DNA of 53,108 bases. Origin: a virus. Positions 5,063-43,287 of this stretch are shown piece after piece (position 1 is the stretch's first letter; each line of letters opens with the position of its first letter). Below the pieces are notes generated by a model. The model saw only the letters and a program-made list of their open reading frames with translations. It was not told the origin of the DNA and searched no databases. Both the position numbers and the translations under genes were made by a program. The stretch lies in IMG/VR virus record IMGVR_UViG_3300050016_000310. The stretch is one strand, 5' to 3'.

Positions 5063-5138
5063 TGGAGGGGGCACAGGGATTTGAACCCCGGATCAAGACT
5101 TTGAAAGTCCCTGCTTTAGGCCACTAAGCTATACCCCC
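5063..5138 (-). tRNA. tRNA with anticodon UCA (opal/UGA suppressor), discriminator U73, encoded CCA
   Basis: Reverse complement folds as GGGGGTA TA GCTT-AGTGGCCTA-AAGC A GGGAC-TT TCA AA-GTCTT GATC CGGGG-TTCAAAT-CCCTG TGCCCCC T CCA. This is a full 76-nt cloverleaf with a 4-nt variable loop, unlike tRNA-Sec. Confidence 0.93.
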
Positions 5139-5954: not shown

Positions 5955-5983
5955 ACAGTGGGAACGAGACTTTAACTTGTCAA
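5955..5983 (-). promoter_or_regulatory. sigma70-like promoter for the leader/PTH2/tRNA unit
   Basis: TTGACA-17 nt-CACTGT: perfect -35, weak -10. Confidence 0.45.
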
Positions 5984-6423
5984 CCAGGACCCTTCGCTTT
6001 CCGGGAGGCCGCGAGATTCTCTTCAAGGGCCTTCGTCAAAAATTCAATGACCTGCGGGATTTCTTTGTCGGTCAGGTTGAAGTTTTCTTTTTCATTCCCG
6101 ATCTGCACATACGGAGTGCCGTCCGTACTCTGCGTCTTCCGCTTCAGTTCCACCGTGCCCATGTCCAACCCATCGCTGGTTCTTGGGTTCAGCTGGAGGG
6201 ATGAGGGTTCCCCTTCCGAAGACAGGACCTTCGCCACCGAGGCATAGTCCAAGCCCAGGCCCCGCGCAAAGCCAACGTCCTCCGCGCAGTCCGGGCAGAG
6301 CCTCAGCTTGTCACTCAGCTGGGCCGGATTTTTATGGCAAAGCCTGCATGGGCAAGCACCAGCGGGCTTTGCCGCAGCTTCCACAATCGAAGCCAATACT
6401 GGGTATTTGGCCAAACGTCCCAT
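5980..6423 (-). CDS. Hypothetical Zn-finger protein with N-terminal YPVLASIV motif
   Basis: ATG 6423 lies 7 nt after TTATTT; contains CPCRLC...CPDC. Confidence 0.65.
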   Translation of the reverse strand: MGRLAKYPVLASIVEAAAKPAGACPCRLCHKNPAQLSDKLRLCPDCAEDVGFARGLGLDYASVAKVLSSEGEPSSLQLNPRTSDGLDMGTVELKRKTQSTDGTPYVQIGNEKENFNLTDKEIPQVIEFLTKALEENLAASRKAKGPG

Positions 6424-6437
6424 GTCCAGAAAATAAC

Positions 6438-7046
6438 CTACGCTGGGGAGTAGCCCCACTCATGGAGGCTGTCGCCGTTCGTAAAGAGATCCTTGGCTTT
6501 GACCGTCTTGGTCAGGATTTGATATTGCCCGTTGAGGGCAGAGATTCCGTGCTGCTTTGCGTAGTTCCGGCTGATCGACACCCAATCCCCCGGGTGGATC
6601 ACCCTCTTTTCTGCGGGAGCGCTGGGGGGCTGTGCTTGGAGTTTTTCCAGCTCATCGGAGATCTGGTCGTAAAACTTGTGCCGATCCATTCCTCTCAGGT
6701 CCACGTCTCGTGGAAATTTCCCGTACTTCTGAACGTATCGTTTCTGCGTCTCGATCTCCTGGATCCGATCTTCCCTCGTTAGGGCTTTCGGGACCGCCCG
6801 GTAGATCTTCACCAAGGCATTAGGTCTGCCTCGGCAACGCTGCATCAGCCCCACGGAGAGTCGATCTTCTCCCCCGCCACCCTGATCCCCATAGAGACGG
6901 GCACCTTCAAACGAGTAGATGTCCTCCGGGTAGACCCCGGTCAGATCATGCATCGGAGCGCCGCTGTCTTTGTCCGGGGCGGAATGCTCACCCCGGTACT
7001 CCCCGGGAGCGACCGCAAGGATCCGGGCAAGCGCCGGGAAAAGCGT
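6438..7046 (-). CDS. Putative ADP-ribosyltransferase-fold domain; the coding frame begins directly after the UGA of 7047-7382
   Basis: The frame is open from 7046: TLFPALARILAVAPGEYRGEHSAP...GAPMHDL...YPEDIY...VKIYRAVPK...IHPGDWVSISRNYAKQHG...LHEWGY. The first standard start is at 6953. The R...S.S...E pattern suggests an ART fold (inference). Confidence 0.6.
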   Translation of the reverse strand, partial: TLFPALARILAVAPGEYRGEHSAPDKDSGAPMHDLTGVYPEDIYSFEGARLYGDQGGGGEDRLSVGLMQRCRGRPNALVKIYRAVPKALTREDRIQEIETQKRYVQKYGKFPRDVDLRGMDRHKFYDQISDELEKLQAQPPSAPAEKRVIHPGDWVSISRNYAKQHGISALNGQYQILTKTVKAKDLFTNGDSLHEWGYSPA

Positions 7047-7382
7047 TCAAGTCCTTTGCGCACGCTTGCGCTTCTTCGCATCATCGATCCGGTCCAGGCG
7101 AGCCAGGATGGAATTGGCGAGCTTCTGCTTCTTGCGCTCGACCAGTTCATTGGCCATCGCGCGGATCTGGGCGACCTGATTGTCAGACAACCCCAGCTCC
7201 TCCTCGCGGATCTCGGGCTCCGGGATCTTGGGCAAAAGTTTGTCGAGCGCATCCATGGCGTCTTCCGATCTGAGGGCCAACACGGTCATCTCCCGCGCCA
7301 ACACCTCATCGCCCGCCTTGAAGGTCTGGCGAGCGACGTAAATCAACCGCTGAGTGGGATGGGTGGGCGTGGAGTTCGGCAT
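7047..7382 (-). CDS. Hypothetical coiled-coil protein, ends in UGA in frame with the downstream ORF
   Basis: AAGG SD, TTATTC motif at 7407-7412, helical charged sequence. Confidence 0.7.
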   Translation of the reverse strand: MPNSTPTHPTQRLIYVARQTFKAGDEVLAREMTVLALRSEDAMDALDKLLPKIPEPEIREEELGLSDNQVAQIRAMANELVERKKQKLANSILARLDRIDDAKKRKRAQRT

Positions 7383-8380: not shown

Positions 8381-9499
8381 TCAGACTCTTACGCCGTGAA
8401 CGACCGCGCGGCCGTTGGCGACGATGAGCCCCATAATTTTTTGCATATACCATCCTCTTTCAGGCTTTCCTATGAGGTACATGTTGATAGGGGCCGTGGT
8501 AACATCCTTCCGGACCGTCTGAGCGCCGAGCACGTTCGGCGCCGACAGGAAGTAGAACTCGCCCGAGTTCAGGACCTTGAGGGTCTCGTACCGCAGACCG
8601 TCCGTGATCAGGTTCACGCCGTACATCGAGCCGAGCGAACCCGACATGATGACTTCGCGCTTGGTCACGGGATCGAAGTACGTGGCGAATTCTGGATCCG
8701 TCAGGATGTCGTTCCACAGGTCCATAGCGATGATCGCGGTGGCGCAAGGATTGCCCCACTGTTGGATCTGCGTCCGGGCCTGGGAGAACACTGACGGGGT
8801 GAAGGTCGTGAAACCCACAGGGTCGTTGTAGCTCGTGGCGGCGACGTTGAGCAGGCCGGTGAGGACCTGATCTTCCTTCACCATCATCTGCTCCAGGCCG
8901 TCGATGTACTTGTCATCGAGCAAATCGCCGGGAGCCTGTTCGAGTTCGCGGTCTTCGATCAGGATGTGCGCCTTGACGTAGAATTCGTCAGGGAACAGGT
9001 AGGACTGATTGATCTGGGAAGTGATCCCAACCGAATCGGTCGCCGCGTAGAACGCGAGGACGTCCTTTTTGCGGATCTTGATACGGCCGATGTCGCCCTT
9101 CTTCAGATCCTTGCGCATCATGATCTTGCGCAAGAAGCCGTCGCGTCCCATCGTTTCGAGCACTTCGTCGCCAAGGACTTCCCCGACGACCCGCCAGGTT
9201 TCGCCCGACTTGTCGGACATGGCAGCTTCGACGAGTTCAGCGCGCTGATTCGCGAAGTCGTGCTGTTCCTGGATCTCGCCAGTTGTCGCGGCAAGAGCCA
9301 GAGCGCCAATGCGCTGCATGACTTCTTTCTTGGAACCGGCGTTGATCTCGCCATTCTTGTCTTCGAACGCTCCGGCGCCGACTTCGACCTTGCCGTTGCG
9401 GGGATGGACCGCGAGAGCCGTGCGGCTTTCGCTGAGTTCATTACCCGTGCGGGTAATGACCACTGATTTCTTCGAGTAGGGATTGAGGGCGGTTGCCAT
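8381..9499 (-). CDS. Major capsid protein (HK97 fold, jumbo-phage type)
   Basis: 372 aa with strong codon bias and AGGAG SD. Motifs RDGFLRKIM, FPDEFYV..HILIEDRE, MVKED, W.DI...F..YFDPVTK.E....G.LG..YGV.LITDG.R resemble large-myovirus capsids. Last gene of the scaffold-decoration-MCP cluster. Confidence 0.85.
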   Translation of the reverse strand: MATALNPYSKKSVVITRTGNELSESRTALAVHPRNGKVEVGAGAFEDKNGEINAGSKKEVMQRIGALALAATTGEIQEQHDFANQRAELVEAAMSDKSGETWRVVGEVLGDEVLETMGRDGFLRKIMMRKDLKKGDIGRIKIRKKDVLAFYAATDSVGITSQINQSYLFPDEFYVKAHILIEDRELEQAPGDLLDDKYIDGLEQMMVKEDQVLTGLLNVAATSYNDPVGFTTFTPSVFSQARTQIQQWGNPCATAIIAMDLWNDILTDPEFATYFDPVTKREVIMSGSLGSMYGVNLITDGLRYETLKVLNSGEFYFLSAPNVLGAQTVRKDVTTAPINMYLIGKPERGWYMQKIMGLIVANGRAVVHGVRV

Positions 9500-28605: not shown

Positions 28606-29397
28606 GTGAACGCCACCTCTTACCCTTCCCTCTCTCGCATCCTCGCGCATAATGCCCCAGTGCGGATCGAAGAGCAAGACTTCACGCCCGAGCTGGCTGC
28701 AAAGCTGAAGGATCTCCGCATCGCGGCGCAGAGCCCCGATGGAGCCATCTCCTGCTTTTCCAAATGGCTGGCGGAGCCCGAATCTGATTACGCTCCTGGG
28801 GCTGTGGAAGTGGCCTACCAGGGCGACGTTCCAATCGGTTGGTCTGGGCTAGGAAAAACCCGGGGCCGCTACTCCACTCCTATCATCGGAGTCTTTGTTC
28901 TCGATTCCCTTCGCGGTCAGGGCCTGGGTGAACGACTAATCCAATCCGCCCTCCGTTCTTATAAAAAAAGTTTTGATCCCGAGCTGGACGACCCGTCGAT
29001 TATCTACGACTCCGCCAGTTGGCCGAAGCTCCGCGCCATGATTGAGGCCGAAGGCTTCCAGCCGAGGGGTTCCGACGATGATTATAATTATCCGCTGGTC
29101 GCCGCCGTCCTGGCAGATGCACCCTTGCCGGAACTCACCGATCCTGAATTCTGGAAACGAAACTTCGAGCGCACGCAGGACCGGCCCGGCAAGCGCCTGG
29201 GCGTTGAGCTGCGGCACTATCTGGAGTTCCATCACAAGGAGCACCCGAAGGGTAGCTACGTGACGGACCAGGATCTTTCCAACATGCTCAAGATGAGCGA
29301 TCGGGAGTTCTCCCGGATGGGGCTCGCCGTCCAATACCTTATCGCAAGAAAAGCCCTCCAGAAGGGCAAAACTCCCAACCGCTACCGGGTGATCTAA
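28606..29397 (+). CDS. GNAT acetyltransferase domain plus C-terminal domain
   Basis: IGVFVLDSLRGQGLGERLIQSAL (acetyl-CoA-binding motif A). Confidence 0.8.
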   Translation: MNATSYPSLSRILAHNAPVRIEEQDFTPELAAKLKDLRIAAQSPDGAISCFSKWLAEPESDYAPGAVEVAYQGDVPIGWSGLGKTRGRYSTPIIGVFVLDSLRGQGLGERLIQSALRSYKKSFDPELDDPSIIYDSASWPKLRAMIEAEGFQPRGSDDDYNYPLVAAVLADAPLPELTDPEFWKRNFERTQDRPGKRLGVELRHYLEFHHKEHPKGSYVTDQDLSNMLKMSDREFSRMGLAVQYLIARKALQKGKTPNRYRVI

Positions 29398-29699
29398 TGC
29401 GCTATGGAAAGCTCACGCACCTCGCAACTGAAGAATCCGTTGAGGGCTACTATATCAACGCGCCCACAACCGGGCAGCCCTTCACGCTCCACGGGAATCC
29501 TGAAGTCCTGGACCGAATCACCGGGACAGTCCAGGCCGTCGTCCGGATTCCCGACCGGATCGAAGCAGCGCCGATTCAGCTGGCCCGCGTGAAGCTCCCG
29601 CCGAGTGCGAAGGCGGGGGACCTCGTGCTGCTCACCCCGCAGGGGCATTACCTGCTCCAGACTTACCGGCCTCCCGTGGATCCTCGGGGCGTGGCTTAG
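29397..29699 (+). CDS. Hypothetical protein
   Basis: TAATG coupling with the GNAT gene. Confidence 0.6.
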   Translation: MRYGKLTHLATEESVEGYYINAPTTGQPFTLHGNPEVLDRITGTVQAVVRIPDRIEAAPIQLARVKLPPSAKAGDLVLLTPQGHYLLQTYRPPVDPRGVA

Positions 29700-31473
29700 G
29701 GATTATAAACCCAGCGGATCTTGCCGCAGTCGTAAATCCGGAACCAGCCCTGTTCCAGACGCAGGATATGCTCTGCCCTTTTTGACAGCTTTTCCATTTT
29801 CGTTTTTCTCATGGATTGCTTCGACTTCCTTTGGAAAAGGTGACCCGGTTGACAGTAGAAATATTCCGGTCTGAGCTTCTGAGCAAATTTAAATCCTAAT
29901 TTTTGATAGATTTTTCCTGTGGAGTATCTGTTATCAGACCAGCTCCAGATGGGTTTCTTGGGGAGGCGCTTTAGACTGTTCTTCCACAACTTCTCAGAGC
30001 CTCCCACGATGTCATATTTCCCAAAGCAAAGTCTGCTCAAAATCTGAATCCCGTCATGCCCTGGCCGATGATGCGGCCCGAAACAGATCACCCCAACTAG
30101 TTCTGACCTTTGAAAGAGTCCAAAGGAGTAGGTGGTCTGAAGCGGGGTTGCCCCCTGAAGATGGTAGGTTCTCGTAAAATCCCGAGCTGCCCCTAGATCT
30201 ATAGGTTTAAAAACAGTGTCCCGGGCAAATATTTTCTGTCGCTTCAAGACGCGGGCTAAAACGATCTCTTTTTTCAATTCCCATTCATCTTCAAAAATGG
30301 TGAAAAGTTTTAATTCTGGCGCATGTTTCGCCAACACCTGCATCTTGTAGCTATGGTGGCGGATTAATTTATTGTACTCTTTGCCGTCTAGGCAGCTTTT
30401 AAAGGTCAGGTCCGGATCCAGGATGGCCTCAGAATGGTAGCGCAATCCGCAGTATTCCAATGCGAACCCTCCCGCACGGGTAACGATATCGAATTCCACC
30501 CCTTCTATTTTTTCTTTTTGCGCATCCGGATAAAGTTCCTGAATCTCCCTTAAAATTTCCAGTTCGGCGACACTGGCTTGAGGATGACAGTCTGTGCATC
30601 GGTATTGGCGCACCTTAAAGACTGAGGGCTGCACCCTTTTAAAATGCCCCTTCTCACATTTCAACACGACCAGAACTTTACCCCCCTGCTTTTCAAGCCC
30701 TTCCACAGAATAGCCCTTAGCCGCATAGAGGGGGTCTGCCTGGACTTCTTCCAACGTCCATTGCGGGGTCCCAAAACAAGTGGGGCACCGCACCTGGGAG
30801 TCCTTCCAGTGATTCCAATGCACTTGGAATGTATGCCCTTGGGGACAGAGGGCCTTCATTTTAGTTAAGACTCCAGTGAATTTCTTTTCCAGCAATTCGT
30901 AGCCTTCTTTTTTAAAATCAGCGCGAACTTCTTCAATTGTCCGATTTCTTTTCTGTGGTGTGGGGCCCCGTGCGGACCTGTAACCCTTCCGCCAAGAAAT
31001 AGCATCGATCAAGTGGAGCTGCCCTTCTGGGTCCCGGAGCTTAAGCTTCCGGGTACTGCCCTTGTACTGGGTCGTTTCTAACTTCCACCCTTCCGTCTCG
31101 ATCTCGGATTTAATTTCTTTGAAAAATTCCTCAGAATCTTTGCCAGCGCAGGCGCCACACTCGACCCCCTTGGCAAATCTCCAATTGGCCACCTCGTAGC
31201 CGTGGCCCCTTGGACACAAAACCCGAAGCCGAATCTCCTGCTCCGCCCTGAAGGCCCCTTCCACCCTGTATCCCTTGGCGAGCTGGGCTTGGATCCGAGG
31301 ATCCATCAAAAGGGACTCCAAGTTCACGGGCGCAAACTTTAAACATTCTTGGCACTTTTGCGGCGGATTAGAACTGAACTTTCCTCGGGGCATTTTGCGG
31401 ACACCCTCTGTGCCAACGAAGCCTGCAACACCCTGCCCCGTGTAAATTAGTGTAGGGCGAGTATGAGTAAGGC

Positions 31474-31986
31474 ATGTTCGAAAATAAAAAATATGATTCT
31501 ACAGTCCGAGTTGAAAACGGCAGCGTCAGTGAGTCCCAGGCCAATGCTCAGAGCAGTGCTCTGGGTGGAACCGAGCCCCCGAATCCCGAGGTTAAGCCTA
31601 AGATTAAGCGCAAGCATCTGACGGCTGAATACAAGCTGAGGGTTTTATCCGAGGCGGACCGTCTGAGAGGCGATCCTGGGCGAATCGCGGCGCTTCTTCG
31701 TCGCGAAGGCCTGTACGCCTCACACCTGAGCAACTGGAGGCGCCAGCGGTCCGTGGGCGCGTATGCGGCCCTCTCCGCGACGCGTGGTCGGAAGCCCGAG
31801 CATGACGCGAAAGATCTCAAGATCGAGCAGCAGGGCAAAGAGCTGGATAAGCTCAGGACGTGGAAGAAGCACGCGGAGTTGATCATGGACGCTCAAAAAA
31901 AAATTGCTCTCATCCTGGGGAATCCGATCCAGGTGGAGACTCTTCCGAGGCTTCCGAACCTGGATCTGGACGAGGAGAACTCATGA
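31474..31986 (+). CDS. IS3-family OrfA (HTH)
   Basis: KRKHLTAEYKLRVLSEAD...ALLRREGLYASHLSNWR; A9 slippery run at 31895-31903. Confidence 0.9.
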   Translation: MFENKKYDSTVRVENGSVSESQANAQSSALGGTEPPNPEVKPKIKRKHLTAEYKLRVLSEADRLRGDPGRIAALLRREGLYASHLSNWRRQRSVGAYAALSATRGRKPEHDAKDLKIEQQGKELDKLRTWKKHAELIMDAQKKIALILGNPIQVETLPRLPNLDLDEENS

Positions 31987-33032
31987 CTCAGATTGAAACT
32001 TTGCATTCTGAGTTCTTGATATCGCTCTCATGGCTCAGCTCCGCCTTGGGTGTGGACCGCTCCACGATCTATCGCCACCGCTGGAAACGAAACCCCGAGG
32101 AATCCCCGGCGGACTCCGCGATAGTGGGACCTAAGCGCAAACCGTTCCGAAGCCTAAGCGAGGAGGAAGAGAAGCGAGTGCTGGAGGCCTGCCACAGTGC
32201 GCGTTTTGAGGACAAAGCGCCGCCGGAGATCTACGCGACACTCCTCGACGAAGGTATTTATCTGGGTTCCGTGCGCACGATGTACCGGATCTTGGAAAAG
32301 CACCAGGAGGTCCGGGAAAGGCGGGCCATCGTTCGTCACGCGCACTACGCCAAACCCGAACTTCTGGCTACTGCGCCGAATCAGGTATGGTCCTGGGATA
32401 TTACCAAGCTCCTGGGGCCCGTGAAGTGGACCTATTATTACCTGTACGTCCTGCTCGATATCTTCAGCCGATACGTCGTGGGCTGGATGCTGGCGGAGCG
32501 CGAAAGCGGGCTCTTCGCCAAGCACCTGATCGCCGAGGCTTGCGAAAAACAGCAGGTCAAGCCGGAGGGCTTGATTATCCACTCGGACCGCGGATCGCCG
32601 ATGATCTCAAAGCCTGTGGCGCAGCTCATGGGAGACTTGGGGATCACCAGAAGCCTGAACCGCCCTCACGTGAGCAACGACAACCCATACTCCGAGGCGC
32701 AGTTCAAAACGATGAAGTATTGCCCCGCATTTCCCGAACGTTTTGGCTCGCCACAGGACGGACGCGCATTTTGCCGCACGTTCTTCCCGTGGTACAACAC
32801 GGAGCACCGCCATGGCGGGATCGGGTACTATACGCCAGAATCAGTGCATTACGGCAAAGCGCAGGCATTCTTCGAGACCCGCGCTCAAGCTCTCAACGCA
32901 GCCTACGCCATGCATCCTGAACGCTTCGTGAGGAAACCTCCGCGCCCAGCTCAGGTCCCGACAGAGGCCTGGATCAACCCACCCAAGCCAGAAAGCGAGG
33001 ACATGCCTGACGACTATATTCTTGTTGTTTAA
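31983..33032 (+). CDS. IS3-family OrfB DDE transposase (rve domain)
   Basis: PNQVWSWDIT, LDIFSRYVVGW, HSDRGS, SNDNPYSEAQFKTMK, WYN.EHRH. Confidence 0.95.
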   Translation: MTQIETLHSEFLISLSWLSSALGVDRSTIYRHRWKRNPEESPADSAIVGPKRKPFRSLSEEEEKRVLEACHSARFEDKAPPEIYATLLDEGIYLGSVRTMYRILEKHQEVRERRAIVRHAHYAKPELLATAPNQVWSWDITKLLGPVKWTYYYLYVLLDIFSRYVVGWMLAERESGLFAKHLIAEACEKQQVKPEGLIIHSDRGSPMISKPVAQLMGDLGITRSLNRPHVSNDNPYSEAQFKTMKYCPAFPERFGSPQDGRAFCRTFFPWYNTEHRHGGIGYYTPESVHYGKAQAFFETRAQALNAAYAMHPERFVRKPPRPAQVPTEAWINPPKPESEDMPDDYILVV

Positions 33033-38115: not shown

Positions 38116-38466
38116 ATGGCCGGGGGCAAAAAACGAGTTGAGCTAAAGTTTTTCGACGCAGAGGCTGTGAAGGCTGCCCTGTTCCGATACCATTCAGATC
38201 ATGTCTTCCGGGAGGAAATCGACAGGCGGGCGGATAAACTCTCGAATCGAGTCCGGGCGGAGGCTTTCCCGCTTTCTGTGGAACTGCTGCTCCATGGCGC
38301 GGCCGTCATGATCGAGGGCGTAGTGGGCAAGGAATCCCACGTCACCCTCCTGGAGCCCTCCCACACGTCCGTCCATTACATCAATGACATCATTCCGGCA
38401 AAATCCCCCCGCAGAAAATTGCGCCTGGTCAGACTTCCTGATTCACTTGACCCTCCCTTGAAATGA
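38116..38466 (+). CDS. Hypothetical protein
   Basis: 116-aa ORF divergent from the SWIM gene. Confidence 0.55.
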   Translation: MAGGKKRVELKFFDAEAVKAALFRYHSDHVFREEIDRRADKLSNRVRAEAFPLSVELLLHGAAVMIEGVVGKESHVTLLEPSHTSVHYINDIIPAKSPRRKLRLVRLPDSLDPPLK

Positions 38467-38968: not shown

Positions 38969-40267
38969 ATGCAAAAACCTGCTCCCACCAAGACTTCCGA
39001 GTACCGAACCGACCGGGCCATCCGGGAGAAGATCTTCAAAATCCCTCTCCTGCCCCAGGACAAAGCAGTCCTCAAAATCGCGGAGCTGGACACTCTCCTC
39101 TACCCCCACGCGCTCGCGCTCACTAAGCGCTTCCCTCTCCTCCGCAATTATTTCGAAGAGGTCATGTTCCGGATCGCTTCCGGCAACACACAGGGCAAAA
39201 ACTACTACAACAAAGAAGACCACGAGGACGACAAGAAGAAAAAAAAGCTGCTCCAGAACTCGGAAAAACGGGTCCTAATCGAGAGCTTTTCTCTTCTACG
39301 TCTGAAGGACCTGCCGGAGCGCTTCTGCCACGTCATCAAGCACGCAAGCTTCCTTCGAGGCGTCTTCGAAGAGGCGGTGGAGCTTTTCCTCGAAACCACC
39401 TTGTCCTACCCCGACGATCTGAAGGCCATGCAGCTGGCTGCCAGGGAGCACTCGCCCGATTTCGTCGAGCTGGAAACCAAAATCCGCCGAGTCGAAAATG
39501 AACTGGGTTGCCATGACCCAGCCGAGATCCTCGAATGGGTTGCGAAGGCAGATCATGTCTGGACCCAATACGTCTTGCTCCGCGAGGAGCTGATCTCCCC
39601 CTACTTCCGGCTCGTCTACTCACTCGCGCAGAAGTACGCCTCGTCCCCCGCCCAAATCCTTGATAACTTCCAAAACGGTGTCTTCGGGCTCGTGCGCGCG
39701 GTCAAATGCTACACGCCCACCCGCTTCGCCGCCTTCTCAGTAGTCGCAACGCAGTGGATCAAGCAATCGATACTTCTTCAATTAAAAAGCGAAGTTAACT
39801 TGATTAAGCTGCCCGTTGCGTCGTGGCATCTTTACCAAAAACTCGAAAAAATTCGGAACGAGATCGAGAAGACGACGCAAAAATCCGCGACTCACGAAGA
39901 GATTGCGGCGGCGGCCAAATTACCTGTCGAAAAGATTCAGAAGATTTATGAAAACGCCAAGCTTGTCCAGGTCCTGAGCCTGAACAATCCCACCCACAAT
40001 GAGGATCAGCAGGCGGCTGACAGCAAATGGAACATGGAGTCGATCCCAGCGTCCCAGGACCAGCACGACCTCTATGAACTGAAGAGCGAGTTTCTGTTGA
40101 TCGAAAAAGTCCTGGATCTGATGGACGAGGAGGAACGGGTGATCTTCGGTCTCGTCTCCGGCTGCTTCGATCTCATTCCCGAGCCCGCACTGGATCCCAC
40201 CGAGATCTTGAGGGAAACAATCAGACAAAAAGCGGCGCGGCGTCATTTAACCCTTATTTTTAAGTAG
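38969..40267 (+). CDS. Phage RpoD-like (sigma70-family) sigma factor with degenerate region 4
   Basis: Region 2: REELI..YFRLVYSLAQKY...LDNFQNGVFGLVRAVKCY....FS..A.QWIKQSI. Region 3: IKLPV...T.EEIA....LP.EKI...SLNNP. Confidence 0.85.
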   Translation: MQKPAPTKTSEYRTDRAIREKIFKIPLLPQDKAVLKIAELDTLLYPHALALTKRFPLLRNYFEEVMFRIASGNTQGKNYYNKEDHEDDKKKKKLLQNSEKRVLIESFSLLRLKDLPERFCHVIKHASFLRGVFEEAVELFLETTLSYPDDLKAMQLAAREHSPDFVELETKIRRVENELGCHDPAEILEWVAKADHVWTQYVLLREELISPYFRLVYSLAQKYASSPAQILDNFQNGVFGLVRAVKCYTPTRFAAFSVVATQWIKQSILLQLKSEVNLIKLPVASWHLYQKLEKIRNEIEKTTQKSATHEEIAAAAKLPVEKIQKIYENAKLVQVLSLNNPTHNEDQQAADSKWNMESIPASQDQHDLYELKSEFLLIEKVLDLMDEEERVIFGLVSGCFDLIPEPALDPTEILRETIRQKAARRHLTLIFK

Positions 40268-40272
40268 AGCGA

Positions 40273-41043
40273 TTGAGTATGAAACACCTTGCCGCCCCCA
40301 ACGGGGCCAGTATCCTCGCGGAAGCCCAAGCGGCACTTAGGGCCGCCCAGGTTCAGACGGCCGAGGCGCGCGACGAAGCCCGGGAGCCCGCCGGTAATCC
40401 GCCGGTAACCCTCCGGGACCTCCCGGCCGTCCAGGGGATCCAAGGCATCCCGGATGAATTCGATCTGCCGCCGCAGGCCCACCGCCCGGCGTTCACGGCG
40501 ACAGCCTTCCTGGAGGCACCCAACCCCTACCCCCAGCACATGCCCCAGAAGTTTGGGGATGTTCCCTCCCAGCTGCGCGAAACGCAGCAGATCAATACCT
40601 TTGAAATCAAGAAACTGAACTTGGCCGCCACGATCGAGGCGCTGGAGCGGGCGGTCATGTCCCAGGAGGCGATGCCTTCCCCCGACGCGGCGTTTGCCGT
40701 CGCGGCGCTCTCTGAGCAGGTCATGAAGTTGACCCGCGAGCTGGAGAAGTCGCAAGATCCGGCCAAGATCTACCGGCGGGTCGTGGATGAGATCTTAGCT
40801 AAATTAGTTGAGCACATGATCTACACGATCTGCTCGGAGATGAAGCGGCTCAAGCAGGATAGCCACCAGCTGCTTTCGGCGGATCGCGAGGGCCCGATGA
40901 GCAAGGCGATTGACGAGACGACCCTTCGGGTCGGACCGATCTTAAGTGACGTCCTAGAAATCGCCAAGAAGCGCATGCTCAAGATCTTTGATCTGAAAGA
41001 GGTCAAGGATCATTCCCCCGATCATATGGAAACACCCCCATGA
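40273..41043 (+). CDS. Hypothetical helical protein upstream of terL (possible small terminase)
   Basis: Position and helical C-terminal half only. Confidence 0.5.
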   Translation: MSMKHLAAPNGASILAEAQAALRAAQVQTAEARDEAREPAGNPPVTLRDLPAVQGIQGIPDEFDLPPQAHRPAFTATAFLEAPNPYPQHMPQKFGDVPSQLRETQQINTFEIKKLNLAATIEALERAVMSQEAMPSPDAAFAVAALSEQVMKLTRELEKSQDPAKIYRRVVDEILAKLVEHMIYTICSEMKRLKQDSHQLLSADREGPMSKAIDETTLRVGPILSDVLEIAKKRMLKIFDLKEVKDHSPDHMETPP

Positions 41044-41264
41044 TGCTTCTCTCGTATCCCCAATACGTCGAGAAGTTCGCGGACTCCAATTTTGCCCGGG
41101 TGTTCCTGGTTCACTACCTCCAGTCCGGCTACCAGCTCGAAACCCTCCATAACCCGGAGGACATCAAGGGGCTCGCAGACCTGACCGTCATCACACTCTC
41201 GCTGGCCGTCTTCCCCAGTTTCTTCCTCCGGGAGAGCATCGCTCCCAACGCCTGGATCCACTGA
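41040..41264 (+). CDS. Small hypothetical protein
   Basis: ATGA-coupled; fills the gap before terL. Confidence 0.55.
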   Translation: MMLLSYPQYVEKFADSNFARVFLVHYLQSGYQLETLHNPEDIKGLADLTVITLSLAVFPSFFLRESIAPNAWIH

Positions 41265-41265
41265 T

Positions 41266-43287
41266 ATGGCCAGGCCCAAGAAAAAATTCGATCCCCAGGA
41301 CATCCTCCGGCAGATCGTTTCGAGCGACTTTGATCTCACCCGCTTCGCCGAGGTGGACGAACGAGACATTCCACAACCTTCCAATTTTGTAGAATGGATC
41401 ACCGGCCGCGCGTTCTGCGACGCCACCCTTCTGCCCTGGCAAGTCGAAGCCGGTATGCACCTGTTCTCCGATTATTGTCCAGAGTGTTCGGATCCAGAAT
41501 ATCTCGCCGATCTATTCAATGAAACGATGGGAGAGATCCTCGACCATGTCGTATTTTTGAAGCAGGGCGTTTGCCCAAAATGTAAAAAAAATCGTCTTGA
41601 ATTATTCACTCCGGGGATTTTACATCCCTCCAAACCTTCGCTTAAAAATGAATTCATTGGCAACATGGGCCAAAGAATAGGGAAATCAAAATTCCTAGTA
41701 TCTGCCGGGTGTTACCAGACAAATCAATGGGTGAGGCTCCCGGATCCCCATGAATTTTACAATCTTCCCAAGATGGAAGTTGTACTGGGAACTTTCTCTG
41801 CTCTATCGGCAGAACAGGCGGAAGAAAATCTCTGGATGCCTTTCAAGGCGCTTTACGATCAGGCCCCCTGGTTCAAAAAATACAACGAATTTTTGAGATC
41901 AGAAGAAAAGCGTCTTTCCGTTCCCCTGTGTGACATTGGGGGGACTTATATTTTTTATCCGCACAAAAGATTGTTACTTTCGTTTACCGGCGCGGACGAT
42001 CGTAAAAAAAGAGGACGCACTCGGTTGTTTGGACAAATTGATGAAATCGCTTACCTCAATACGGAGGAGGGCACGTCCAAGAAAAAGGTTATGGACGCGG
42101 ACAAGAACTACGCGGCGTTGAACAACTCCCTTTCCACGATCCGCCAGAAAGCGCTGAATAAAATTGCAACAGGGCATTTCGACGTTCCTCTAGCCATCAT
42201 GTACAACGCCTCCTCTCCCTACAACGTCCAGGATAAGATCATGCGACTCACTAAATCGGGCCCTGACAATCCCTTTGCTGTCGTTATGCACAAGGCTACT
42301 TGGGAAGGGAATCCAGATTTCACAGAGCATTCTCTGCGAGCCCAAAATCAAGCTCTCTCCCAGGCCGAGTTCGATCGCGACTTCGGCGCCGTGCCTCCCT
42401 TCTCCGATTCCCCCTACATCGGGGATGCCCGCGTGCTGGAGAAGCTCTGCCTTCCCCCCGATAAGCACCAGGCGCTCATCGTTGCGACCCGCGAGATCCA
42501 CAAGGATCAGATGGGCGATTCCTACCTCTATTTGAAGGCGAAGATTGCCCGGCCGGACAAAAACACGCCGCTACTCCTGGCACTCGACAACGGCTACAAT
42601 CACAATGCCTTCGGCGCCGCGATCTTTGGATTCGATGGCATCAAAAAGAAAGCGATCCTTCGAGCCCTCTTCAGTCTTTACCCGGATCCGAGCAACGGCC
42701 TCAGCATCCACTTCCCATCCATGTTTGAGCATTTCATTATTCCGTTGGTGAAATACCTGCGGATCCATCACATCATTTACGATCGCTGGCAATCACTCGA
42801 CCAGATCCAACGGCTCCGAGACATGAAGATCAATGCTCAAGCGCACAGCCTGTCTTTTGAAAAAGATCTCCTGCCGTTCAAGCAAATGTTGTTGTCGGGG
42901 AACATGATCCTACCCCCTTGTGAAATGCCGATCCAAGACGTCAAGGATGCGCCTAATCCCACTCACGTCACCCGGAATAAGCCGGTGGCGAATCTGATCT
43001 GGCAGGCCCTCACGGTCCGGCAAGTCCGCCGCAAGGTGCTCAAGCCCCTCGAAGGGGATGACGATTTGTTCCGCGCCTTCGTCTTAGGTGGCTCCCGCTT
43101 CCTGGCGGAGGACATCCAGAAACAATACGCGAGTTTTAATGGAGTGCGTCAATCCCTCCAAGGAGGGTTCGTCGGCAGCTACAATTCCATGAAAAAGGTT
43201 GGCGGGATGGCGCCGGGAGCCCCAGCTCAGGTCGCCTCCAACTTTGCGAGCTACCGTGGCTTTACCCGGGGAGCGGGTAGGAAGTGA
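41266..43287 (+). CDS. terL: Terminase large subunit
   Basis: L.PWQ adenine-binding motif, Walker A MGQRIGKS, Walker B GQIDEIAY, coupling motif ASSP, RNase H-like LALDNG, YDRWQS and DDLFRA. Confidence 0.9.
   Translation: MARPKKKFDPQDILRQIVSSDFDLTRFAEVDERDIPQPSNFVEWITGRAFCDATLLPWQVEAGMHLFSDYCPECSDPEYLADLFNETMGEILDHVVFLKQGVCPKCKKNRLELFTPGILHPSKPSLKNEFIGNMGQRIGKSKFLVSAGCYQTNQWVRLPDPHEFYNLPKMEVVLGTFSALSAEQAEENLWMPFKALYDQAPWFKKYNEFLRSEEKRLSVPLCDIGGTYIFYPHKRLLLSFTGADDRKKRGRTRLFGQIDEIAYLNTEEGTSKKKVMDADKNYAALNNSLSTIRQKALNKIATGHFDVPLAIMYNASSPYNVQDKIMRLTKSGPDNPFAVVMHKATWEGNPDFTEHSLRAQNQALSQAEFDRDFGAVPPFSDSPYIGDARVLEKLCLPPDKHQALIVATREIHKDQMGDSYLYLKAKIARPDKNTPLLLALDNGYNHNAFGAAIFGFDGIKKKAILRALFSLYPDPSNGLSIHFPSMFEHFIIPLVKYLRIHHIIYDRWQSLDQIQRLRDMKINAQAHSLSFEKDLLPFKQMLLSGNMILPPCEMPIQDVKDAPNPTHVTRNKPVANLIWQALTVRQVRRKVLKPLEGDDDLFRAFVLGGSRFLAEDIQKQYASFNGVRQSLQGGFVGSYNSMKKVGGMAPGAPAQVASNFASYRGFTRGAGRK

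Follow-up and report, generated by a model that had tools for sequence, protein, structure and literature searches.

Programmed UGA readthrough is known in phages from the A1 protein of Qbeta, and stop codons are also recoded with the help of phage suppressor tRNAs. In +1 frameshifting of the prfB type, a slippery P-site codon is combined with a slow A-site codon (a stop or a rare codon) and with an SD sequence 3 nt upstream. In phages, genes for ADP-ribosyltransferases (ARTs) often neighbor head genes, and the enzymes are often packaged in the head (Iyer et al. 2022, PMC9503650). Polyvalent proteins are injected by the phage, and the company of Mu_F, ART-PolyVal, RNase_T and GNAT domains is their signature (Iyer et al. 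2017, PMC5512222). We have compared with these systems a locus from a 53,108-nucleotide stretch of viral DNA (IMG/VR record IMGVR_UViG_3300050016_000310, hereafter the window), in which an in-frame UGA lies between a small ORF and a putative ART-like domain. The reading that we favor, and consider fairly probable, is that of an independently initiated, tagged and probably head-packaged ART-fold effector gene carrying an indel at its 5' end.

All features of the locus lie on the minus strand. ORF1 (7050..7382, with its ATG at 7382) encodes a helical protein of 111 aa whose tail is rich in K and R, and belongs to a family of stand-alone genes. Its natural stop, TGA (7047..7049), is in frame in the window contig with the downstream domain, the frame remaining open for 202 codons (6438..7046) up to a TAG at 6440-6438. 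The first ATG, GTG or TTG past the ORF1 TGA is codon 32, the ATG at 6951..6953, from which the gene caller derived the 171-aa protein P0002; the sole further table-11 start between these two points is an ATC (7022-7020). The original prediction, made from the sequence, had described this anatomy exactly in every detail: an ORF at 7382-7047 ending in TGA, a frame open to 6438 and 31 codons containing no ATG, GTG or TTG.

These 31 codons had also been regarded as coding, and the alignments agreed with this. The YRGEH motif, with its family-invariant Y and H (Y17, 6998-6996; H21, 6986-6984), falls ahead of ATG 6953 in an alignment of 45 sequences, and the same stretch folds with the distal domain in the AlphaFold model (pLDDT 93 for residues 21-30, model mean 90.1). 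A length-limited search with the distal frame retrieved 80 homologous proteins, the closest being P0003 (61% identity, E 3e-75), and with homologues down to such E-values the open frame is not a chance one. Since the invariant YRGEH segment lies upstream of ATG 6953, P0002 is N-terminally truncated. Hence, we give almost no credence to the 171-aa product as a real functional protein. The gene caller chose its ATG, the earliest canonical start of the frame, but the product would be deprived of the tag described below and of 31 conserved residues, among them Y17 and H21, both invariant and both involved in the fold. Furthermore, no SD sequence was found before 6953, and every homologue (80 loci) starts upstream of YRGEH.

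A suppressor tRNA had been predicted about 2 kb from the ORF1 stop. A tRNA gene with the anticodon UCA was indeed detected there on the same strand (5063..5138; 76 nt) by ARAGORN and by the Rfam tRNA model (59.3 bits), with an encoded CCA, a U at the discriminator position and a canonical UU-UCA-AA anticodon loop. It had no match in E. coli genomes, and the nearest phage tRNA was a tRNA-Gln(UUG) with 79.5% identity. The locus thus resembles UGA readthrough systems in its in-frame UGA at a domain boundary, in the coding sequence beyond it and in the cognate suppressor tRNA of the genome. On this basis, tRNA(UCA) would sometimes read the ORF1 UGA, giving a ~314-aa protein made of ORF1, the tag and the ART-like domain, and only when the tRNA is expressed. 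This was the headline of the original prediction, which saw in the locus the best target of the suppressor and a conditionally produced enzyme. It is compatible with the in-frame TGA followed by 202 coding codons, with no start for 31 of them, with the genuine tRNA(UCA) nearby on the same strand and with a distal domain that is intact and keeps all family invariants. Yet we consider such a fusion unlikely, both from the use of UGA in the window and from the relatives of the two halves.

TGA ends 19 gene-like ORFs (ORF1 and 18 others) in the 53-kb window, which is part of a contig of ~120 kb, so that UGA serves as a stop in other genes here, at variance with UGA readthrough systems. Past 16 of those TGAs the frame closes after 1-148 codons, whose coding score is neutral or negative, and only the TGA at 7047 has a long coding-like extension lacking a start. 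Two same-frame ORF pairs, at 38466 and 43287, were considered as readthrough cases and rejected, as the second ORFs start 8 and 5 codons past the TGA and are ordinary neighbors. Global recoding of TGA was rejected as well: reading TGA as sense inflates ORFs on all strands (55-60% GC), yet the extensions past the 18 real stops are short or non-coding. No other window gene needing UGA decoding was found among the 18 other TGA-ended ORFs, and no stimulatory RNA structure beyond that of shuffled sequence was detected around or after the ORF1 TGA (z 0.30).

HMMER, run exhaustively against 1.84 billion representative proteins, returned 15 relatives of ORF1. Eleven of the 13 that were aligned are 94-140 aa long and end at the end position of ORF1, most of them, like ORF1, with an ILARL(D/E)RI..KK(K/R)-rich tail. 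No protein joining ORF1 and the distal domain was present among the 1.84 billion representatives. In a 223-kb IMG/VR contig (L082), the ORF1 homologue (65% identity) ends with TAA and is followed by a hairpin, with no distal domain. At L083 the next gene is convergent, and at L085 a different gene lies 200 nt further on. At L084 the gene that follows the ORF1-family gene starts by an ATGA overlap and reads MKYPHLTRILA. The stop position of ORF1 is therefore best read, from these comparisons, as ancestral and ORF1 as a gene of its own. This sets the locus apart from UGA readthrough systems, as the ORF1 family ends here alone, and it argues against the suppressor-dependent fusion.

Two proteins bear on that fusion in the opposite direction. 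In P0095 (271 aa) and P0085 (222 aa, also found at L084 1212-1880), an ORF1-like N-terminal domain is fused to two different C-terminal domains, neither of which has a Pfam match. Together with the internal tag of P0003 (see below), these fusions suggest that the joining of ORF1 to another domain is architecturally acceptable. The C-terminal domain of P0095 contains YHFTT...SFTRNP. The core of ORF1 (approximately residues 39-71, EDA.DALDKLLP..PEP) is repeated 28 times in P0082 (2246 aa) and 13 times in P0093 (1134 aa), so that ORF1 itself seems to be one unit of a repeat module. At L082 (5001-6946), ~1 kb separates the ORF1 homologue from downstream homologues of the gene at 29397-29699 and of the window GNAT gene (28606-29397), the latter matched in its C-terminal half. 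The corresponding window genes are 21 kb apart, and with such different spacings the tagged effector genes seem to have been shuffled around ORF1.

The most direct evidence on how the effector gene starts came from a sibling allele. At 90% identity, P0002 clusters with a second protein, P0097, which has 214 aa and comes from a different JGI contig (10,866 bp). With a script, we have reproduced P0097 letter for letter from the window DNA by starting at the ATG 7082..7084 and removing 2 nt inside CGCTTTTCCCGGCG, that is, in the T4C3 tract at 7036..7042 (T4 at 7042-7039, C3 at 7038-7036). No single-base insertion in the window DNA reproduced the protein. Judged from the P0097 protein, the sibling differs from the window over 645 nt solely in the length of this tract. 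The P0097 gene has an ordinary ATG start, is out of frame with ORF1 and overlaps its 3' end by 38 nt. Since P0097 is matched from ATG 7084 minus 2 nt, a strain-level relative is separately initiated and out of frame with ORF1, needing no readthrough. Contrary to what is seen in UGA readthrough systems, the in-frame arrangement is thus lost even in a near-identical sibling, which weighs against the suppressor-dependent fusion. The frame alternative to that of ORF1 is open for ~70 codons, so that any frameshift into it would meet an ATG, a point against the separate start. By chance, a frameshift lands in the ORF1 frame one time in two, a point against the fusion.

A related arrangement had been offered in the original prediction as an alternative, namely a start at TTG 7050 together with a +1 slip or a 1-nt error in the run of four T's. 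The independent start and the tract-length difference that it supposed agree with our results; its size and position do not, as the sibling differs by 2 nt and starts at ATG 7084. Even so, this alternative is closer to the data than the headline reading. The TTG (7048..7050) is in another frame, overlaps the ORF1 stop (TTGA) and is preceded by AAAGGA, with a spacing that recurs at two other window genes (CAAGGA-ATG). It would be a candidate start if the tract were T3C3. Such a hypothetical tract would put TTG 7050 in frame with the domain and give the product MNAFPALARILA, which would resemble the start of the GNAT gene at 28606, where GTG AAC GCC gives MNATSYPSLSRILA.

The TTG and its surroundings could also be taken as part of a recoding device that does without the tRNA, either by a programmed +1 shift at GCU UUU C after a start at TTG 7050 or by a non-canonical start (ATC 7022-7020 or ACG 7046-7044). 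The AAAGGA at its recurrent spacing would suit the first version, and a +1 shift on UUU_C would give MNAF-PALARILA, resembling the MNATS-YPSLSRILA of the 28606 gene. However, the site departs from the prfB type: the A-site codon in GCU UUU CCC is CCC, neither a hungry codon nor a stop, the AAAGGA lies 10 nt upstream of UUU and is not a prfB-like spaced SD, and no structure was found. In addition, the ATC start would halve the tag, the 80 homologous loci all do without such a device, and the sibling allele reveals a plain variation in tract length. We therefore regard tRNA-free recoding as very improbable.

The window allele, as read from its sequence, would be genuine, as a strain polymorphism or null allele, or else would stem from an assembly error. 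A scan for leaders lacking a start gave no other convincing sign of frameshifts or indels in the window, so that the extra 2 nt may be real. An orfA/orfB pair of the IS3 type (31471-33032) was considered as a sign of an indel-prone assembly and rejected, this being the normal overlapping arrangement of an rve transposase. The pair, on the plus strand, is an IS3/IS481-like insertion-sequence transposase inside the phage: orfA is 171 aa long, orfB contains an HTH_32 domain and an rve integrase core, and the two share an ATGA overlap. Elsewhere in the window, 41185-43287 (+) encodes a terminase large subunit (phrog_17415, E 7e-107; only profile positions 406-921 of 940 matched), and no match was found for the overlapping ORFs 40264-41043 and 40992-41264 that come just before it.

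We have then analyzed the short motif that follows the ORF1 stop. The [YF]PxL-type motif had been noted in other genes of the window, and the searches agreed: [YF]PxL[AST]x[ILVF][LVMI] had 4 matches in the window and none in the reversed translations used as a control. The copy at the locus, FPALARIL (7017..7040), begins two residues past the TGA. Two other copies lie at N-termini, 3-6 residues from the start codon: in the GNAT acetyltransferase gene (28606..29397, +), whose N-terminal tag is MNATSYPSLSRILA, and in the gene directly downstream of the ART-like gene (5980-6423, -). The latter starts with MGRLAKYPVLASIVEA, has TTATTT 7 nt before its ATG and belongs to no Pfam family. FPALARIL is therefore probably best described, from the sequence comparison, as an N-terminal tag also carried by other proteins of the same phage. 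Its position two residues past the TGA would fit a protein that starts about there. L083 has two tag copies near an N-terminus, and the MKYPHLTRILA of the L084 gene mentioned above is a further N-terminal copy. P0003 starts with MNRRFARYPGLAQVL and carries the motif again internally, just before the distal domain; this copy is in line with the suppressor-dependent fusion and suggests that a junction position is not impossible for the tag.

Relatives of the distal domain were found in at least 447 IMG/VR stretches, and in the alignments the conserved domain starts with (D/E)YRGEHxAP. In each of the 80 viral loci fetched from these 447 stretches, the ORF that holds YRGEH has a canonical start ahead of it; aligning the homologues had been proposed as a way to tell a fusion with a sense codon at the position of the stop from a separate start, and all 80 have a start of their own. 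Stand-alone homologues start 10-25 residues upstream of YRGEH, while others lie inside multidomain ORFs of up to 2848 aa. The homologous modules found inside ORFs of 852-2848 aa share their polypeptides with Phage_Mu_F, ART-PolyVal and RNase_T domains; in P0012 the partner is GNAT. Matches in BFVD include proteins named "Large polyvalent protein associated domain." Five stand-alone homologues (L002, L070, L076, L079 and L080) begin with MK(T/S)FKQ(F/Y)(I/F)(T/L)E right before the YRGEH-type motif, which in L002 has the form YHGEH. This leader resembles the T4 capsid-targeting sequence of the internal proteins. By analogy, such a leader would fit head packaging of the family in other lineages of phages, where the address peptide would be a different one.

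The distal half had been described as R-S-E ART-like, and sequence searches alone gave little on this point. Pfam had no match for ORF1, the distal half or the fusion at E<=1 apart from noise, and a PDB sequence-profile search with the distal domain had no match. A structure search on the distal half had been suggested as well. Foldseek against the PDB gave nothing at E<=0.001 with either the full-length or the short-homologue model, and the only lead in the Atlas was a 0.76-score match to a cluster in which 16% of the members have PARP. The VIA structure searches with the full 202-aa model were uninformative, being dominated by an inserted helical hairpin (residues 88-147). Family members lacking this insert are 140-150 aa long, and the 140-aa P0054 was folded instead (model m95104579a035, pLDDT 90.2). 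Compared with 48,161 PDB representative chains, the short-homologue model gave 47 matches at Z>=2, nearly all from the ART superfamily. They comprised KptA/Tpt1, the ART-like domain of CNFy, TreX/TreTu (Rhs toxins), Vis, Arr, diphtheria (DT) and pertussis (PT) toxins and LT/CT, as well as C3, VIP2, ParT, RES toxins, ExoS, HopU1 and PARPs. In a second structure comparison, 23 of 23 rows were from the ART superfamily. The top Z is only 4.7-4.9. The best match was KptA (9ld4_A; Z 4.9, rmsd 3.0, 73 residues aligned), with similar results for 6ede and 9ld6.

The conservation pattern agreed with these matches. R83 (IYRAVP; 6800-6798), in strand 1 (residues 78-86), is invariant in 45-49 sequences, and E196 (HEWGY; 6461-6459), in the last strand, is also invariant, the residue two positions before it being I or L and not Q or E. 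In GDWV[ST]I, at position 157 (S157, 6578-6576), the first position is S or T throughout and the third varies (S, N, D, I). The comparisons with LT/CT aligned model residues 76-139 with chain residues 4-117, and model residues 73-139 with chain residues 1-117. By range arithmetic, and not by a residue-level alignment, R83 would correspond approximately to R7 of LT/CT and E196 to E112. Taken together, the models support an ART fold for the distal domain, a fold-level assignment at low Z that, with such values, is not a proof of activity; ADP-ribosyl transfer would be its putative function. The ART-like character of the distal half and its invariant R and E thus agree with the earlier description, the domain matching no curated ART sequence family.

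The closest functional parallel may be found in T4 Alt and other head-packaged phage ARTs, which share with the distal domain the ART-superfamily fold and R, S/T and E-like conserved residues. The gene lies near head genes, the presumed capsid gene (8381-9499) being ~1.3 kb away, and its homologous modules occur in MuF-containing polyvalent proteins. The protein has a short N-terminal address-like peptide, here common to other proteins of the phage, and its packaging is suggested by analogy only. Unlike the T4 Alt type, it has one E in place of [QE]xE, and a conserved YRGEHxAP segment is added at its N-terminus. Moreover, the distal domain has no detectable sequence similarity to Alt/VIP2 or any Pfam ART family, and its structural Z values are ~3-5.

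Three other assignments were considered. ART-PolyVal (PF18760), an H-Y-D ART, is found in large phage proteins of the same kind and, at L017 and L031, even shares a polypeptide with the domain. It is, however, a distinct module: the PF18760 match lies elsewhere in the L017 and L031 polypeptides, Pfam gave no PF18760 match in the distal domain, and conservation here falls on R, S/T and E instead of H-Y-D. The RNA 2'-phosphotransferases KptA/Tpt1 provide the best structural matches, through the NAD-binding lobe, but with a low Z, 13-16% identity and only the C-terminal lobe aligned. Finally, the distal half is a member of PHROG 2579, "ParB C-terminal domain" (E 1.5e-34). This label covers one architecture (a ParB-like N-terminal domain, as in P0003 and P0015), whereas the domain is also found alone or with GNAT, MuF, RNase_T and ART-PolyVal. 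The label looks like a misnomer derived from that one architecture, as the domain is mostly found without ParB and is predicted to fold like an ART.

In the separately initiated effector gene that we favor, the locus would consist of two genes. ORF1 (7382-7050), a small helical protein, ends where its family has ended ancestrally, at TGA 7049-7047. The gene after it would encode ~200 aa, comprising a short leader, the shared N-terminal tag FPALARILA and the ART-fold domain with its R-[S/T]-E-like conserved residues, and would have an independent start, its 5' end reaching into the end of ORF1. The start is ATG 7084 in the sibling contig, whose allele may be the functional one; it would be TTG 7050, overlapping the TGA, if the true tract were T3C3. 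With a T4C3 tract 2 nt longer than that of the sibling just after this start, the window contig has the gene body in the frame of ORF1, devoid of a start. The apparent in-frame UGA would thus result from an indel and not be an evolved readthrough site. The analogy with T4 Alt and with MuF polyvalent proteins suggests that the ART-fold protein is probably packaged in the head and carried from there into the host.

A further possibility, which we hold to be quite unlikely, unites the sibling allele with the suppressor tRNA: the 2-nt polymorphism of the T4C3 tract would switch the effector between a separately initiated protein (sibling) and one made only as a tRNA(UCA)-dependent fusion to ORF1 (window). 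If this were true, the suppressor tRNA would gate the production of a potentially host-modifying enzyme. If the locus is not a target, tRNA(UCA) lacks a demonstrated coding target in the 53-kb window, and either a target elsewhere in the genome or a regulatory role would have to be looked for. The case illustrates how an indel beside a 4-nt start/stop overlap can mimic programmed readthrough. More broadly, an ART-fold enzyme with an invariant R and E can now be proposed, in testable form, for a widespread phage module that lacks a Pfam family and stands either alone, following an N-terminal address-like peptide, or within MuF polyvalent proteins.
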